Sequence record: MW822008.1
DNA from: Escherichia phage BF17
Length of the DNA: 64,000 bases
Direction: 5' to 3' (one strand)
Of this stretch, positions 11,002 to 63,108 are shown in pieces. The notes under the pieces were generated by a model that was given only the letters and a program-made list of their open reading frames with translations, was not told the origin of the DNA and made no database searches. Position 1 is the stretch's first letter. Every line of letters starts with the position of its first letter. The translations under genes and the position numbers were made by a program.

Positions 11002-11745
11002 ATGAAACACTTCTTAGAAGTAACTGTACCTGATGATAAAGATTTATACATTGTAGGTGATTTGCATGGTAATGGTAAACTATGGGATGCTACAGTGAAA
11101 GAATTTGGTATTACACACAATGATTATGTTTTCAGTGTAGGTGATATTATCGACCGTGGAGAACAAAATTCAAAGCTCCTTTTTGAATTTTTGTTCGGAG
11201 AAAATCGTTACATGATTGCGGGTAATCATGAGATGATGTGCGTTGATTCGGAAACACTTCGAGATTGGTATCATTGTTGGATAAGTAATGGTGGTGATAA
11301 ATTCCTTGATGAAGTTGGAGGAACAGGCATTCAATTCTTTCGTCAGTACTTAAAGGATCTCCCTATGATTATCCAAATCAATCACCGAGGATTGAAGATT
11401 GGGTTAGTTCATGCTGGAGTTCCGTTGGAATATACAACATGGGAACGATTTGTTAATGGGACAAAATCACTTAGTGCTGATATAATTGATAAGTGCTTGT
11501 GGGATAGAAAAACATTCGATTATTGTAGAACTAATAATACATATTATGCACCTAAGTTAGATGGAGTGCATTGTGTCTTTAGTGGACATACAGCAGTTAC
11601 AGACCCACTCATTTACGGTAATCGCATTTGGATTGATAGTCAGTTCTTGACGGGTGACTTAACTCTCGCTACTCCACAAAGTGGTGGGATGAGATACTTA
11701 CGTAAAGAAAAAGATGAGTACTCATTCAATCGTTTCAAAAGGTAA
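11002..11745 (+). CDS. Ser/Thr protein phosphatase (PPP-family metallophosphatase)
   Basis: GDLHGN, GDIIDRG, GNHE motifs of calcineurin-like phosphatases. Confidence 0.75.
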   Translation: MKHFLEVTVPDDKDLYIVGDLHGNGKLWDATVKEFGITHNDYVFSVGDIIDRGEQNSKLLFEFLFGENRYMIAGNHEMMCVDSETLRDWYHCWISNGGDKFLDEVGGTGIQFFRQYLKDLPMIIQINHRGLKIGLVHAGVPLEYTTWERFVNGTKSLSADIIDKCLWDRKTFDYCRTNNTYYAPKLDGVHCVFSGHTAVTDPLIYGNRIWIDSQFLTGDLTLATPQSGGMRYLRKEKDEYSFNRFKR

Positions 11746-23464: not shown

Positions 23465-24012
23465 GTGTTAAAGAAGTTCCCTTTGGTGAATATGGCACAC
23501 GTGCAAATTTTGTATTTTGTTATTTCTTTGCAAGAAAATGCAACCCTTACAAAAACTATGAGTTGAATGATATACCAGAAGTAAATTTAGTATTACTGCA
23601 ATTACGATGGGATGGTCTTCTTGGTGGATGTGGTGGAACCGTAGAAAGTACTGATATCTCACTAGAAGATGCGTTGCGTCGTGAAGTTCAAGAAGAAATG
23701 GATTACAATATTTTTGTTTCCCATCTTCGACCACTCAAAACTTTTGAAATTTACCCAGGTGCAAACAGTCACAGTTTTAGCTATGAAGTAACCTATGACG
23801 AGTTGAAACACATTAGAGATGGATACACTAATGCTAAACATGCAAGTGCAGAAGTTGCTGGTGTAAATTTATGTCATATTTCTCGTTATTCTAAGGGACA
23901 AAATCGAGAAGCGGGATATAATAATCTTATGACACAGAACTTCATCGGTACAGCAAAACAAGAATTGGAGTATCTGGTTCAAAAAGAAAACTTACTAATT
24001 AGTTATCTATAG
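23461..24012 (+). CDS. Nudix hydrolase
   Basis: Nudix box GGTVESTDISLEDALRREVQEEMDY (G-x5-E-x7-REVxEE). Confidence 0.7.
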   Translation: MSVKEVPFGEYGTRANFVFCYFFARKCNPYKNYELNDIPEVNLVLLQLRWDGLLGGCGGTVESTDISLEDALRREVQEEMDYNIFVSHLRPLKTFEIYPGANSHSFSYEVTYDELKHIRDGYTNAKHASAEVAGVNLCHISRYSKGQNREAGYNNLMTQNFIGTAKQELEYLVQKENLLISYL

Positions 24013-26148: not shown

Positions 26149-26178
26149 TGGGACATTATGTCCCATACATGATATAAT
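26149..26178 (+). promoter_or_regulatory. early promoter with palindromic TGGGACA upstream element
   Basis: GGGACA - 17 nt - TGaTATAAT; 19-bp palindrome ATGGGACATTATGTCCCAT. Confidence 0.55.
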
Positions 26179-28215: not shown

Positions 28216-28397
28216 ATGGGTTATCATATAAAGAAGCAGGTAAAGATGGTGTCAAAGGTGAAGCTGTAGATCTTTGCATTTGTGCACTTGACATGTTCGC
28301 TTTGTAATGCGATAATATGAGTTCAGAAGAGATGGAACGTGAGTTCCTTACTTACATGAATGTTAAACTAGCCAAATGGCGTAAATCAATTCAATAG
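28216..28397 (+). pseudogene. decayed partial duplicate of 3' end of gene 27539..28189
   Basis: Two short reading frames split by a stop encode ...AVDLCICALDMFAL and MSSEEMEREFLTYMNVKLAKWRKSIQ, resembling upstream C-terminus ...DISVQMALKAMELF...SAEEVEREFITRVQIALFQSKK. Confidence 0.4.
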
Positions 28398-28406
28398 GTA
28401 TTTTAA

Positions 28407-29378
28407 ATGAAAACTAAAATTATTTCTGAACAAAAAATTGGCAATACTACAGTACTGAATCTTGAAGTTCAAGGTCTTAGTAATGTTCGTTCTCTTACGG
28501 TTTGTACTCAGAGAGATGATTTGACTGATTTCTATAGCTCAGAATACATGTCAGAAGAACCTTGGGATATGGGATGGTTGGACGGTAGTAGTTATATCAG
28601 TTCACGTTATAGTTTTGGTTCTCATGAAAATATTGAACAATTAAAAAATGAGTATATTAAACTCAGTGATACTATTGAAATGAAAGAAGAAGATTGTGTA
28701 GAACTTTTCATTTTTGAATTCGATGCCGGAAATGGTAATTCATTACTAGTAAGTAATATTGAAGAACATTTAATGTATCATGAAATTGAAGATGTAGATT
28801 TTGAAAGTATTAAAAATGTTGTTCATATGGTTGGTGGTAGTATTACTGATGATTCAGATATCGGTCATAATATTTCACTGTGCTTAATTTCTCATCCAAA
28901 AACTCGTGGTTTTAAAGTTCCACAAGATGAAACTTACGTGTCTGAAACTGCTGATGAAGGAATTTATCCTTGGAATGATTATGTAGAATACTATGGTCAT
29001 TTCTGTTCTGATACAAAAGAACTGAAAAAAGGCGAACAATATTTTGATATGTTCCGTGCTGCACAGCGTTTAGTACTGAATAATACTGAACTATTTCCTG
29101 ATCGCGGCGAAGAAAATATGATTGATATTATCTTCAAGAACTATGATTATGTACAGAACATTCCTGATAATGTACATTTGGAATATGTTCACAGTTCTTC
29201 AAACAAATTCTATAATATTGAATTGAATGCTCCAGTGTGTGAAGTAATTATTGAGTACGGTGCTATTGGTAAAACCAGTACTACTGATGGTGAAGAATTC
29301 GAAACTATTGAAGAAGCACGTAAGTTCTTCGAGAAGAAAGTAATTTCCAAAATTAAAAGTGGTTATAGCCCAAAATGA
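28407..29378 (+). CDS. hypothetical acidic protein
   Basis: 323-aa ORF. Confidence 0.55.
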   Translation: MKTKIISEQKIGNTTVLNLEVQGLSNVRSLTVCTQRDDLTDFYSSEYMSEEPWDMGWLDGSSYISSRYSFGSHENIEQLKNEYIKLSDTIEMKEEDCVELFIFEFDAGNGNSLLVSNIEEHLMYHEIEDVDFESIKNVVHMVGGSITDDSDIGHNISLCLISHPKTRGFKVPQDETYVSETADEGIYPWNDYVEYYGHFCSDTKELKKGEQYFDMFRAAQRLVLNNTELFPDRGEENMIDIIFKNYDYVQNIPDNVHLEYVHSSSNKFYNIELNAPVCEVIIEYGAIGKTSTTDGEEFETIEEARKFFEKKVISKIKSGYSPK

Positions 29379-49643: not shown

Positions 49644-49948
49644 AAAAATTATTAGTTCCAATGATTTCTTTTTTAATTATAAGTGGGTGTGCCGAGCAAG
49701 TAAAACTACAATCCCCCGCACCAATTAAACAAGAAATTCTGTTAGAAAGATGTGATGATGATACACCTCTACCACAAAAAATTATGATTGACAAAAATGG
49801 TTTTAAAGGTTATGATGGTGCAGAAATTCTTAAAGTACTTACTCGTTGGGATGCAGTCTACAATGAATGTGCTTTAAAACACGACGCATTGATTAAAACT
49901 ATTCGTGATTTACAAGGTAAAGATATTAAAATCAATATCAAGGAATAA
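49640..49948 (+). CDS. putative o-spanin (Rz1-like lipoprotein)
   Basis: Signal peptide with lipobox IISGC; overlaps upstream gene. Confidence 0.55.
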   Translation: MKKLLVPMISFLIISGCAEQVKLQSPAPIKQEILLERCDDDTPLPQKIMIDKNGFKGYDGAEILKVLTRWDAVYNECALKHDALIKTIRDLQGKDIKINIKE

Positions 49949-49949
49949 A

Positions 49950-50561
49950 ATGAACAAATATCATGTTTACTATACGACAAAATTATCACTTCTTGAAGAA
50001 TTAAATCAACGAAGTACTAAGATGAAACGCTACACTTTAAATGGTATTACTTTTCGATATTTCCCACAAAAAGTTCTTACTTTTGTTAAGAATCCAAAAT
50101 GCGTGGCATGTGGGATTGAAGCTACTGAAGTACGCATTGAACGTTCATTATGTTCTGATCCAGTATATGGTAAACCACATTTAAATGTATATGCTGTATG
50201 TGGTCTTTATGAAGTTTTAATGACAGTTGACCATAATCATCTGGCATCTAAGGGTGGACCTGATTTAGAGTCAAACTTTAATACTATGTGCTCCAGATGT
50301 AATCAACTACGTTCGAATAAAACTGAAACAGTTGATGAGTTTCTTGAGAAAGTTAAAGGTCGTAATCTTCTCCAAGAACATATGAATAATTTCTTTAATG
50401 TACAAAAAAAGAAAAATAACATTGACAAGTCGAAACTACTAGAAGAACGTAGGTTACGTCAAGAATTATGGGAAACCGATCATCTATGGCATGTTCGAGA
50501 GTTTGGTCGTCATATGAAAGCTTTGAAAAAAGAACAGAAGAAATTGAATAAACATGATTGA
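49950..50561 (+). CDS. HNH endonuclease
   Basis: ORF 49905..50561 trimmed to ATG after upstream stop; DHNH ... N ... CSRCN motif with flanking cysteines. Confidence 0.6.
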   Translation: MNKYHVYYTTKLSLLEELNQRSTKMKRYTLNGITFRYFPQKVLTFVKNPKCVACGIEATEVRIERSLCSDPVYGKPHLNVYAVCGLYEVLMTVDHNHLASKGGPDLESNFNTMCSRCNQLRSNKTETVDEFLEKVKGRNLLQEHMNNFFNVQKKKNNIDKSKLLEERRLRQELWETDHLWHVREFGRHMKALKKEQKKLNKHD

Positions 50562-50613: not shown

Positions 50614-50970
50614 ATGAAATCTAAAATCTTTTTACCACAATTAATGTGGCATCTAGCAGAGTTAGATGAAAATGATGAATATACTGACTATGGTGCATGG
50701 GATGACAGTACTGAAACTTTTAAACCAGATGTAAAATATAAAATCATCTGCAATGAAAGCAAAGGGCACAGAAGGTGGACTGAAGAATTTGATCTCGTAT
50801 TTCTTGACATGAGCACAAATAAGTTTTATCATTGTACTTATGAACGAGGTTTAACAGAAGATAGACCAGTACAACCATTCAGTACTGAAACTGATGGTGT
50901 TAAGTGCAATGAAGTTTCTGTTACCAGAGAAGAAATTATCACTTATCGAACTTTGTGGAAATATTTGTAA
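50614..50970 (+). CDS. hypothetical protein
   Basis: 118-aa ORF after GGAG. Confidence 0.5.
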   Translation: MKSKIFLPQLMWHLAELDENDEYTDYGAWDDSTETFKPDVKYKIICNESKGHRRWTEEFDLVFLDMSTNKFYHCTYERGLTEDRPVQPFSTETDGVKCNEVSVTREEIITYRTLWKYL

Positions 50971-50971
50971 A

Positions 50972-51370
50972 ATGCTTAAAGAATTAGATTTTTCAAACTT
51001 AGAAATTATCAGTGCTGTAAAAAACATTTCCGATATGGGAGATGAGAAAGCAGTTCTTGTTACTATTACTTTTGTAAAAGAAAAAGATAGCTATAGCCAT
51101 TTAACTGGCATTGAAGAACTAATTCATAAAACCAATCTTGAGAATGATGGTAAACTCATCAAGCTTCAGGCTTCCTATACGCAAAAAACGTCAAATTTTA
51201 TAGACCTAAATAATGTAGTCAAGGTGGTATACAATCATCCTGAACACACATATAGGAACACGACAAGAAATGAAAATGTTGCTAACGATTCGAATATTAT
51301 CGAAGATGTTGAATTCATAAACACAATTTTTGATCGTTGTTCTAAGGATTTAAAAAAAGTATACATGTAA
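50972..51370 (+). CDS. hypothetical protein
   Basis: ORF 50894..51370 trimmed to ATG after upstream stop. Confidence 0.5.
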   Translation: MLKELDFSNLEIISAVKNISDMGDEKAVLVTITFVKEKDSYSHLTGIEELIHKTNLENDGKLIKLQASYTQKTSNFIDLNNVVKVVYNHPEHTYRNTTRNENVANDSNIIEDVEFINTIFDRCSKDLKKVYM

Positions 51371-51399
51371 TGGGACATTATATGTTCCAATGATATAAT
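51371..51399 (+). promoter_or_regulatory. early promoter with TGGGACA upstream element
   Basis: GGGACA - 16 nt - TGaTATAAT; near-identical to promoter at 26149. Confidence 0.55.
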
Positions 51400-51676
51400 G
51401 TATATAGAAAATGACAACGGACATTGAAAAATGGACACTGAGAACCTACTTCTCTTGAAAATGTAAAGGATAGATGAGCTTTACCGTTGTAGCGAACAGC
51501 AGAAGAAACCTGTTAGAGTACTGGCATTCAAACAAACACGATGTAAGACCACGAATCACGGCGACACGGCTGTATAAAGAACTCCGATAAGCATACAGAG
51601 AGTTCCTAGATAGATGTATAAGGTTCGCACCTTACCAGATTTGCTAAGGGAGTTCAAGAATAGCGGACGCAATTTT

Positions 51677-51706
51677 TACAAGAAAGTTGCGTCCAAAATT
51701 TGAGAA
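51677..51706 (+). repeat. dispersed direct repeat copy 1
   Basis: TACAAGAAAGTTGCGTCCAAAATTTGAGAA, 27/30 identical to copy at 51829. Confidence 0.7.
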
Positions 51707-51828
51707 CAAGTACTACTTTGATCGAATAGAGTTAGTACTGAGTGCTGTTGATGAAAAGACCAGCGACCGTTGCATATGACTGCGATAGAGAGAAACCGAG
51801 CAACCCGCTTTCGCTCTCTAAATTTTGG

Positions 51829-51858
51829 TACAAGAAAGATCCGTCCAAAATTTGAGAA
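51829..51858 (+). repeat. dispersed direct repeat copy 2
   Basis: TACAAGAAAGATCCGTCCAAAATTTGAGAA. Confidence 0.7.
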
Positions 51859-51896
51859 ATTCGCAATTCGATAATATCCGATGCCATCATCGTCAA

Positions 51897-51921
51897 GAGA
51901 GACTTAATTGTCTCTTTTTTA
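51897..51921 (+). terminator. rho-independent terminator
   Basis: GAGAGAC-TTAATT-GTCTCT then TTTTTT. Confidence 0.55.
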
Positions 51922-52060
51922 TTACCTTCATTCCCCTGCGGGGGGATGTAATAGTCCTCAACAAATCCCGTCAAGTTTTTAAAGTACATTATCATTTTCA
52001 GAAGGAACTAGTTTACGAAGTAAACGCAGTGACTTCTTGAGTTACGAGAGAACGAAGTGA

Positions 52061-52489
52061 ATGAGTAACACAACGAAAATATCCGATAAATCCGAATTAA
52101 CACAAATGTTATTCAAAGAATATTTTGAGTTTCAGATAAAAGACGAACATCAATTACCACAGCAATATTTGAAAAGAATTAAAGATCCGTCAGTAATTAC
52201 TAAAGAAACTAATTTTTATAATAGTATTTTGGATTTCGTTAAATCAGTTCATACAACAAGACCTATTGTAGTTTTGTTTTTTGATAAATCTATTCCTTTA
52301 GTAGTTCCTGAAAATGTATTTTTTATTTCAGAAACTGATTTAAATAATCAAAGTACTGTAAGTAGATTAAGAAATTGCTTACTTGTAGTATGTGATTCTT
52401 CTTTGTATAATAACAGAATACTATGGGATAGAAGTAAACGCAATGCAGTTTCGGAAATGAATCCTGAAATTACCTTTATTATTAACTAA
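52061..52489 (+). CDS. hypothetical protein
   Basis: 142-aa ORF. Confidence 0.5.
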   Translation: MSNTTKISDKSELTQMLFKEYFEFQIKDEHQLPQQYLKRIKDPSVITKETNFYNSILDFVKSVHTTRPIVVLFFDKSIPLVVPENVFFISETDLNNQSTVSRLRNCLLVVCDSSLYNNRILWDRSKRNAVSEMNPEITFIIN

Positions 52490-52521: not shown

Positions 52522-52962
52522 ATGGAAGATATTAATGATTTACGACACGTAATGGACTTTATCGGAAGTACTGAAGAAGATAATTCATATGATGAAGTAC
52601 TATTAACTTTTATTGAAAATAGTTTGTTTTTAAGTTCTGCTGCACATAACTGGCACTTACAATGTCATTTTTATACAAAGCATTTACAATTAGATGAACT
52701 ATATAAAGAATTACCAGAATATGTAGACGCATTTGTTGAAGGTATCATGAATAATCGTGGTGCTTTGCAAGTTGGGACTGGTAATAGTTATCGTTTTACA
52801 CCAATTGAAGATTGTGTACCAATTCTTGAAGAATATGTTGAGCAATGCAGAGCAATTCATGATATGCTTGAAGAATCGGGTGATTACGGCAGTGTAAACA
52901 CATTAGAAGATATTATGAGTTTTGTTGAAGGAACACTTTACAAACTTAAAGTTTTACAATAA
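52522..52962 (+). CDS. Dps/ferritin-like four-helix-bundle protein
   Basis: AAHNWHLQCHFYTKHLQLDELYKELPEYVDAFVEG shows H-x11-H-x14-D-x3-E spacing as in Dps ferroxidase-site residues. Confidence 0.45.
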   Translation: MEDINDLRHVMDFIGSTEEDNSYDEVLLTFIENSLFLSSAAHNWHLQCHFYTKHLQLDELYKELPEYVDAFVEGIMNNRGALQVGTGNSYRFTPIEDCVPILEEYVEQCRAIHDMLEESGDYGSVNTLEDIMSFVEGTLYKLKVLQ

Positions 52963-63079: not shown

Positions 63080-63108
63080 TGGGACAAGTTAACATCTTCT
63101 GATATAAT
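63080..63108 (+). promoter_or_regulatory. early promoter with TGGGACA upstream element
   Basis: GGGACA - 16 nt - TGaTATAAT. Confidence 0.5.

Follow-up and report, generated by a model that had tools for sequence, protein, structure and literature searches.

The largest intergenic space in a 64,000-nucleotide stretch of Escherichia phage BF17 (sequence record MW822008.1; this whole stretch is called the window below) lies at positions 51371-52060, and it almost certainly houses a stand-alone gene for a structured non-coding RNA. BF17 belongs to the PBECO4-like jumbo phages of the genus Asteriusvirus; over the 801 bases around the locus it matches PBECO4 at 100% identity and some 30 other jumbo phages of this genus at 95-100%. 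The gap spans 690 nucleotides (nt), from a stop codon at 51370 to the next start at 52061, and all substantial open reading frames (ORFs) of the window are on the + strand. In deposited genomes the gap is either blank or holds small ORFs that differ between records and occur on either strand. As the initial annotation had noted from the sequence, G+C content is raised at the locus (0.40-0.42 against 0.336 for the whole window) and a long ORF is lacking; the interval between the promoter and a terminator-like hairpin at 51898-51920 contains no + strand ORF of more than 38 amino acids (aa). A 71-aa ORF beginning with TTG (51825..52040) runs across this hairpin. The RNA gene extends on the + strand from about 51406 to 51975, roughly 570 nt, with its 5' end placed from the promoter and its 3' end where conservation across genera stops.

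The promoter had been described as TGGGACA-type, and this description holds. It occupies 51372..51399 on the + strand and is made up of a -35-like GGGACA (51372-51377), a 16-nt spacer, and the extended -10 element TGATATAAT (51391-51399), matching 10 of 12 consensus positions with the TG extension present. Judged by its match to the sigma-70 consensus, it looks like the type of promoter used by unmodified host RNA polymerase, and its position suggests that transcription starts at about 51405-51407. Six sites of the GGGACA-N16-18-TATAAT class are found in the window, all on the + strand, where 0.03 would be expected. In the form GGGACA-N16-18-(TG)ATATAAT they lie at 1688-1715, 11458-11486, 23895-23922, 26150-26178, 51372-51399, and 63081-63108, and the site at 26150 has its start, GGGACATTAT, in common with the RNA promoter. 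Across the family, TGnTATAAT is positioned 35-111 nt upstream of a conserved GAUGAG motif in 40 of the 46 members that could be evaluated, with a -35 element that is GGGAC- or TGAAAC-like.

Homologues with about 70% nucleotide identity are found by sensitive blastn in other Rak2-like phage genera, including Cronobacter GAP32, Pectobacterium CBB, Xanthomonas XbC2, Yersinia fHe-Yen9-04, Serratia BF, Erwinia phages, and Salmonella 7t3 and Munch, while Klebsiella RaK2 gives a match for the core part of the RNA. Each match sits in an unannotated gap of 600-900 nt or beneath small dubious ORFs, and the flanking genes differ. A pattern search with the most conserved stretch, GACCGTTG...CAACCCGC.TYCG (window 51765-51813), matched 35 stretches in IMG/VR, at 2-4 per jumbo-phage genome, together with 61 metagenome stretches and 8 bacterial-genome stretches. 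Two divergent members, in L102 (metagenome contig OERT01000393.1, 7163-7658) and L115 (1077-1641), stand at a distance of 0.39-0.50 from the window copy; they keep the core and the 3' hairpin and have a different 5' half, which hints that the family is wider than the Rak2-like phages.

Phage 121Q carries three copies of the RNA, all in unannotated gaps and at positions conserved across genera. Downstream of paralogue A (192.7-193.4 kb) are a hypothetical gene and a gene for a DNA methyltransferase, and the same neighbours are found at the Serratia BF copy near 30 kb. Paralogue B (247.4-248.1 kb) is the locus studied here. Paralogue C (326.5-327.3 kb) has the genes for endonuclease VII and the baseplate hub as neighbours, both on the other strand, and the same two genes adjoin the copies in 7t3, Hallingskeid, and one metagenomic phage contig. 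Both A and C are present across Escherichia phages, with C lying unannotated in PBECO4 at 304,727-305,562, and one paralogue of the family adjoins recombination and replication genes. When clustered by distance, the copies group by paralogue rather than by genome, so the duplications predate the genera. No further paralogue is found within the window by blastn or by covariance model, for which a second match at 28296-28472 (E = 0.27) is noise. In the paralogue-A lineage (L019, L021, L027, L034, L049, which is 121Q paralogue A, and L110), a strong hairpin with a run of 6-7 Us, for example GGACAGCAC..GUGUUGUCCUUUUUU, occupies the first 45 nt or so after the -10 box, between the promoter and the conserved body. 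This hairpin, absent from the window copy, could be a protective stem or an attenuator.

The fold was modelled on an alignment of 61 non-redundant full-length copies made with MAFFT (alignment A1), using a covariation scan, RNAalifold on sub-domains, and inspection. The resulting model contains 17 nested helices, two pseudoknots, and one long-range helix. Covariation among homologous phage regions had been named at the outset as a check on a structured RNA, and 69 of the 97 modelled pairs show changes on both sides, compared with 53 when partners are shuffled and 30-45 when they are slid along the alignment. Cells of the alignment are paired in 89.0% of cases (73.5% with shuffled and 37-43% with slid partners), double changes occupy 875 cells (272 and 104-180), and the covariation score is 0.418 (0.166 and 0.06-0.10). 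None of 500 shuffles attained the observed value on any of these measures. In helices P3, P4, P6, P9, P10, P11, P12, and P13, pairing ranges from 89 to 100% and several pair types occur in each, and a blind run of RNAalifold on a separate core alignment recovered P9-P13 as well, 22 of its 26 pairs being compensatory. Support is weaker for the long-range helix LR1 and for P14, which vary on one side only, and lower scores for P7, the base of P8, and the optional hairpin come partly from misalignment of length-variable regions by MAFFT. The folding z-score is -4.26 for the + strand and -1.91 for the - strand relative to shuffles. Because the z-scores, the frequent G.U pairs in the helices, and the direction of the promoter agree, the + strand is taken as the folded strand. 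Together, nucleotide conservation across genera, covariation that includes the pseudoknots, and the + strand z-score strongly support what had been offered as one of three readings, a stable structured non-coding RNA.

The covarying alignment shows a predicted fold with a 5' domain, which is closed by a long-range helix and contains an H-type pseudoknot, followed by a core and a 3' hairpin domain. Within the modelled core, a three-way junction is shown locked to a neighbouring hairpin by a 6-base-pair pseudoknot between a loop and a strand. Beginning at the 5' side, P2 (51446..51473, with all elements that follow likewise on the + strand) is made up of helices 51446-48/51471-73 and 51453-56/51466-69 around the conserved loop GAAAAUGUA (51457-65), and all 7 of its pairs have changed on both sides. 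This is followed at 51474..51493 by GAUGAG and the hairpin P3 (51478-80/51491-93), which is 99.5% paired with UA, CG, and AU types. P4 (51496-500/51569-73, the element spanning 51496..51573) encloses P5 (51510-13/51558-61) and a variable insert at about 51514-51557; P4 is 98.7% paired and 4 of its 5 pairs are compensatory. The long-range helix LR1 joins 51562-65 to 51769-72. Hairpin P6 (51579..51605; 51579-84/51600-05) is compensatory at 6 of 6 pairs, and its loop forms pseudoknot PK2 through pairing of 51590-93 with 51642-45, where 3 of 4 pairs are compensatory and 80% are paired. The next segment, 51619..51652, holds hairpin P7 (51619-24/51629-34), the 3' strand of PK2, and an invariant AAGGGA(G) at 51646-52 (A243-A248). 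A helix between ACCU (51444-47) and AAGGGAG that RNAalifold proposed was rejected, as it conflicts with the covarying P2a and both of its sides are invariant.

The P8 element (51652..51707) is made up of a stem (51652-55/51704-07) and a hairpin, GGACGCAA/UUGCGUCC (51665-72/51687-94), that belongs to the first copy of a repeated module; the base of P8 is only 50% paired in alignment A1 owing to length variation of the region. Hairpin P9 (51709..51739), composed of 51709-14/51734-39 and 51715-19/51728-32, is compensatory at 8 of 8 pairs and is predicted independently by RNAalifold. Its loop, UCGAAU (51722-27), pairs with AUUCGA (51866-71) to form PK1, the best single element of the model: all 6 pairs are compensatory, 99.4% are paired, and the sequences switch to UUGUAU/AUACAA and UCAUGU/ACAUGA in other lineages. 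The P9 loop resembles a T-loop in sequence, and this candidate was set aside as the loop covaries as a Watson-Crick pseudoknot. Hairpin P10 (51743-47/51761-65) and the invariant GACCGUUG at 51765-72 (G362-G369) fill 51743..51773. The three-way junction (51781..51871) is formed by P11 (51781-85/51861-65), which encloses P12 (51788-92/51808-12) and P13 (51815-18/51854-57). These three (helices 16-18) are 99.0%, 99.7%, and 89.5% paired, respectively, and compensatory. The loop of P12 is a near-invariant 15 nt, AAACCGAGCAACCCG (51793-807), ending CAACCCGC (51801-08), and P13 bears the second copy of the module.

The small hairpin P14 (51880..51894; 51880-83/51891-94) ends in CGUCAAG and is 89% paired. 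Beyond it, the 3' domain (51922..51975) contains a hairpin (51929-36/51941-48) made up of a C-run, UGCG, and a G-run, then GAUGNAA and the conserved tail CCUCAACAAAUCCCGUCAAG, with invariant positions G538-G541, A560-562, and C566. A pairing of CCCGC in the P12 loop with GCGGG of this 3' hairpin was considered and dropped, given that the partner varies without compensation. Throughout the fold the invariant nucleotides are located in loops and junctions, namely GAUGAG, AAGGGA (51646-51), GACCGUUG, the P12 loop, the G-run at 51941-44, and the AAA..C of the 3' tail.

It is possible that these invariant junction and loop nucleotides (GACCGUUG, the GAAAC..GCAACCCGC loop, AAGGGAG, and GAUAGA) form the active site of a ribozyme that processes itself or carries out some other reaction, a view that we regard as unlikely. 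A compact pseudoknotted core with invariant unpaired nucleotides would suit such an enzyme, and self-processing would explain the undefined 3' end, as neither the window sequence nor a consensus scan contains a terminator after about 51975. The heptamer CGUCAAG also recurs, at 51891-51897, where it closes the core domain ahead of the optional hairpin, and at 51969-51975, where it closes the 3' domain; it reads CGUCAG in many relatives and could be a processing or recognition site. However, no ribozyme family of Rfam 15 is matched even at E <= 10, there are no flanking exons and no split gene, and no known catalytic motif is present. The hammerhead core in particular failed: GAUGAG-stem-CGAA was compared with CUGANGA...GAAA, the consensus is (C/U)AG(A/U)UGAG, and the four nucleotides after 'CG' covary with 51569-73 as P4.

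The 3' part of the gene was originally thought to end at a clean terminator. The hairpin and its U-run are indeed present at 51898..51920 on the + strand (AGAGAC/GUCUCU, 51898-51903/51910-51915, with Us to 51920) and resemble an intrinsic terminator, but they do not end the unit: relatives align from about 51441 to about 51975, so that conservation continues for 55 nt past the hairpin. The hairpin is found with compensatory changes in 35 of the 61 members and is missing from 26, and all copies, including those that have no hairpin, keep the conserved 3' domain past this point. A consensus terminator scan did not call it, probably because the stem may extend into the T-run and leave too few Ts in the tail. 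The hairpin may cause partial termination that gives two isoforms, or may be a mere structural insert. Alternatively, the whole RNA could be a cis-regulatory leader, a riboswitch or attenuator of the downstream gene with 51898-51920 as its expression platform. A terminator-like hairpin placed after a large conserved fold in over half of the copies fits this idea, as does the same-strand gene that starts 85 nt past the conserved region in the window. It is nevertheless highly improbable, as the gene found downstream is not the same in different genera or at different paralogues, the genes on either side of paralogue C lie on the opposite strand, the most conserved 3' domain comes after a terminator that many copies do not have, and copies in bacterial islands converge on a repressor gene. 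A further hairpin, GTTTAC-GAA-GTAAAC (52012-52026), lies between the RNA and the next gene and has no U-run. Its counterpart in phage A4 is a compensatory variant, GTTATC-GTA-GATAAC, and it may be part of the RNA or of the downstream mRNA.

Within the gap, the initial annotation had drawn attention to two hairpins, two short ORFs (51614..51703 and 51751..51855), and a direct repeat of 30 nt (51677-51706 and 51829-51858), all of which are present as described, the repeats being 93% identical. It had also raised the possibility that the ORFs, which end in the repeat and so have nearly the same C-terminus, encode a pair of microproteins. This is practically untenable. The start codon of the first ORF is kept in 4 of the 61 copies and the ORF is intact in one, the second ORF is intact in two, spans over both ORFs differ by insertions and deletions that are not multiples of three and fall in all three phases, and substitutions track base-pairing rather than codons. 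The shared C-terminus is instead a by-product of a repeated RNA hairpin module with the loop consensus UACAAUAUAG and the 3' strand AUCCGUCC...AAAAUUUGA. Copies of the RNA carry this module at P8 only (site 1; 23 copies), at P13 only (site 2; 14), at both (18), or at neither (6), and those with both include Asteriusvirus paralogue B and most island copies. The repeat had been flagged for a search elsewhere: the core motif of the module occurs nowhere else in the window beyond chance, and among 5,426 E. coli genomes its only occurrences are within two complete chromosomal copies of the RNA. The 30-nt element would be a swappable peripheral hairpin carried on either of two stems, as would suit a module for docking, oligomerisation, or protein binding. 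Possible antisense targets of the RNA in the window comprise a single 14-mer and a handful of 12-13-mers, no more than expected by chance.

Comparison with filed families, the first check named for this locus, gave the outcome expected of an RNA that is not among them. The 4,227 models of Rfam 15, which include GOLLD, ROOL, OLE, raiA, HEARO, RNase P, 6S, and transfer-messenger RNA (tmRNA) as well as group I and II introns, self-cleaving ribozymes, and riboswitches, match nothing in the 64-kb window at their gathering thresholds. At E <= 10, the region 51200-52200 gives only chance matches to eukaryotic small nucleolar RNAs, microRNAs, and long non-coding RNAs that are well below threshold, and the RNA in 8 bacterial loci has no Rfam match either. 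ARAGORN finds no transfer RNA (tRNA) or tmRNA genes in the window. The initial annotation had likewise seen no tRNA T-loop or group I intron core by eye. A group I or II intron is rejected on further grounds, as the RNA has its own promoter and no flanking exons, and paralogue C is antisense to its neighbours. A ToxI-like type III antitoxin was likewise rejected, the two repeats being 152 nt apart rather than in tandem and no toxin being found among the neighbours, as was a HEARO/omega-RNA, the only nearby nuclease being a 218-aa HNH-only protein that is absent in other genera. A covariance model of the core domain P9-P14 (R1, which covers GACCGUUG, CAACCCGC, and PK1) has its only significant match in the window at 51705-51896 (159.8 bits, E = 5.8e-40), a result that is partly circular with the window copy in the seed, and it has 57 matches of 127-169 bits in other loci. 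Because the window sequence was in the seed alignment of R1, independent support for the family comes from covariation. The family apparently has not been described before and is new as a family while familiar as a kind. Searches of the literature on Rak2-like phages, Asteriusvirus, and jumbo phages gave no description of the RNA, and overlap with an unnamed candidate among 10,006 viral RNAs (PMC10690425) is possible.

The RNA is comparable in length to ColE1 RNA II. Like RNA II and the origin transcripts of phage T4 (oriF/oriG), it would be a promoter-driven RNA of about 550 nt that folds in a defined way and lacks a terminator at its functional 3' end, and the several copies per genome recall the several origins of T4-type genomes. 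It could be argued from this that each copy marks a replication origin, where an R-loop near the G-rich 3' domain primes DNA synthesis. Several dispersed copies in a 350-kb genome, a sigma-70-type promoter without a terminator after the 3' domain, the RNA II-like length and the C-run/G-run element at the 3' end, one paralogue beside recombination and replication genes, and the presence of the RNA in mobile islands are all in keeping with such a role. On this view, islands with a copy would be replicated during infection. We hold the origin reading to be improbable. No need for invariant loops or for covarying pseudoknots kept across genera is known for origin primer RNAs, and neither feature is known from RNA II or the T4 transcripts. 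In addition, origin features are not visible at this locus: the window has no AT-rich unwinding element or iterons past the 3' end, the cumulative GC skew has no inflection at the locus, and many copies have an internal terminator ahead of the 3' domain.

The closest likeness in kind is with GOLLD (RF01998) and ROOL (RF03087), which cryogenic electron microscopy (cryo-EM) shows to be RNA-only homo-oligomers (PMC12286853). Like these, the RNA is a multi-helix, pseudoknotted product of a stand-alone phage RNA gene in the 500-800-nt range without a known biochemical function, and its peripheral modules and loop-strand pairings could serve oligomerisation in the same manner. It differs in having no sequence or structure homology to them (no Rfam match at E <= 10), in occurring in phages of Enterobacterales rather than in Lactobacillales, rumen, and lake taxa, in having no nearby tRNA genes, save for tRNAs at least 9 kb away at one locus, and in being present as three paralogues per genome and in chromosomal islands as well.

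Other large lytic phages also transcribe gaps of 0.3-1 kb that hold no ORFs. The Pseudomonas jumbo phage PA5oct has four non-coding RNAs (ncRNAs) defined by RNA sequencing (RNA-seq), two of which are at about 5% of phage reads (PMC7318152), and ICP1 produces an abundant transcript of about 800 nt (PMC7567579). Transcription of these RNAs, ncRNA001-004 and the ICP1 transcript, is very high, and no role is known for them. PA5oct shares a broad clade with 121Q, PBECO4, and RaK2. No conserved motifs of the family were seen by eye in ncRNA001 and ncRNA002, the two that were compared, and R1 has no match in the region (L122). The PA5oct and ICP1 RNAs have transcript evidence and no reported covariation-supported fold, whereas for the present RNA the reverse is true. 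A different kind of likeness, which lies in the sharing of an RNA between phages and islands, including an island with Lamassu-like genes, is found with ToxI, phage pseudo-ToxI, and RNA anti-CRISPRs, phage RNAs with homologues among the RNAs of bacterial defence loci. Those are short tandem repeats of about 36 nt or mimics of CRISPR repeats, unlike the 30-nt repeats set 152 nt apart in a 570-nt fold, and no toxin or Cas partner is adjacent here.

The bacterial copies of the RNA reside in integrative islands of low G+C content (about 0.30-0.38) in Enterobacterales, including Serratia fonticola, Enterobacter chinensis, Silvania, Buttiauxella, and others. In several islands the gene for a large serine recombinase is directly upstream of the RNA in the same orientation, and in several a gene for a cI/LexA-type HTH-S24 repressor converges on it. 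Island copies keep all motifs and score 142-167 bits with the core model. Most form clades of their own, for which the nearest phage copy is the RNA at the paralogue-C position of a metagenomic phage. Among 5,426 complete E. coli genomes, the RNA is present in full in two, at 76% identity across 90% of the query, and the E. coli island copy clusters with a paralogue of Serratia phage BF. The Prokaryotic Genome Annotation Pipeline (PGAP) of NCBI left the E. coli copies unannotated. In E. coli LR-29-1 the copy is located in an island between ffs and ybaA. This island (L123, 7573-17917) contains IS3, integrase fragments, and DUF4326, DUF488, and dual-OB genes. Iteron-like repeats, (T)TATCGATCG, occur at 12580-12640 of L123, about 0.4 kb downstream of the RNA in a 700-nt stretch without ORFs, and could be an origin or a binding array. 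A metagenomic island (L072, 1172-4580 and 8984-11014) holds a trio of Cap4-nuclease, small-ORF, and SMC-like genes, of which the Cap4-nuclease and SMC-like pair is read as Lamassu-like, together with a gene for a 676-aa serine recombinase, and the Serratia fonticola island L058 (106-3439) has two ParB/RepB-like genes. No copy was found on plasmids. One copy on a 2.8-kb contig of a 'Clostridium sp.' metagenome-assembled genome (L059, DPOH01000171.1) clusters tightly with the Buttiauxella and Enterobacter island copies, and this contig is likely a binning contaminant rather than an occurrence in Firmicutes.

These island copies speak for the last of the original readings, a remnant of an acquired element, if this is understood as a decaying mobile or acquired element without present function. 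The raised G+C content and an HNH gene 0.8 kb upstream speak for it too. This gene (49905-50561) encodes a 218-aa free-standing endonuclease (Pfam HNH and HNH_5), probably a homing endonuclease; it is annotated as HNH in phage A4 and is not linked to the RNA in other genera. Purifying selection on the structure across genera, intact promoters, and syntenic positions make a remnant scarcely credible, as the locus is one of three ancient, selectively maintained paralogues. Besides the HNH endonuclease, the near neighbours of the RNA in the window are a DUF7325 protein, encoded directly upstream (50894-51370) and labelled 'structural protein' in 121Q, and an unassigned 142-aa protein. Two genes downstream (52522-52962) lies a gene for a ferritin/Dps-like DUF5856 protein, named DpsA or starvation-inducible regulator in some records.

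The identification of a structured RNA gene is far firmer than any account of what the RNA does. It may act in trans through its three-dimensional fold, and this is favoured because the RNA occurs independently of its neighbours, one paralogue runs antisense to them, the invariant nucleotides are unpaired, the module is swappable, and no antisense targets are found. The RNA would then be a scaffold for a protein partner, an RNA-only assembly, or a decoy for a host or phage factor, and would not act by coding, by antisense pairing, or as the leader of the next gene. We rate a trans-acting scaffold or assembly mechanism as an even call, and the structured RNA gene taken together with such a mechanism as somewhat probable. 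Several points weigh against this account. The transcript and its ends are inferred from sequence in all members, and the 3' domain is perhaps not always in the RNA, given the terminator-like hairpin in 35 of 61 copies. Covariation cannot separate intramolecular from intermolecular pairing, and 'scaffold or decoy' is a default reading for a large folded RNA. Searches of neighbouring genes with Pfam and PHROGs gave no candidate partner family common to phages and islands; the matches were limited to integrases, a cI-like repressor, ParB/RepB, LprI, Lamassu-like genes, and domains without an assigned function. Since selection persists in islands without a protein in common with the phages, a partner would be a host factor or would be supplied by the infecting phage.

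Large structured bacterial and phage RNAs of unknown function, such as OLE, GOLLD, ROOL, and raiA, are few, and the study of each has opened up biology that was not expected, the latest example being RNA-only nanocages. The present family occurs in culturable phages of E. coli, Klebsiella, Serratia, and Erwinia (among them PBECO4, 121Q, and RaK2), so that genetics, RNA-seq, and cryo-EM are feasible. The three paralogues allow comparison, and natural variation suffices for a well-supported structure with two pseudoknots. In over 70 deposited genomes of jumbo phages, about 2 kb each is now blank or annotated with small spurious ORFs, and the island copies beside integrases, repressors, and defence genes provide a handle on function that GOLLD and ROOL lack. 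It is conceivable, if doubtful, that the family represents a new class of large phage RNA, either a catalytic RNA or an RNA-only particle that assembles itself, and that it serves as a currency in the conflict between phages and hosts. Jumbo phages would express three specialised paralogues early in order to disable or occupy a host factor, and a copy would have been taken up by integrative defence or satellite islands of Enterobacteriaceae, which would turn it against those same phages as a decoy or trigger.

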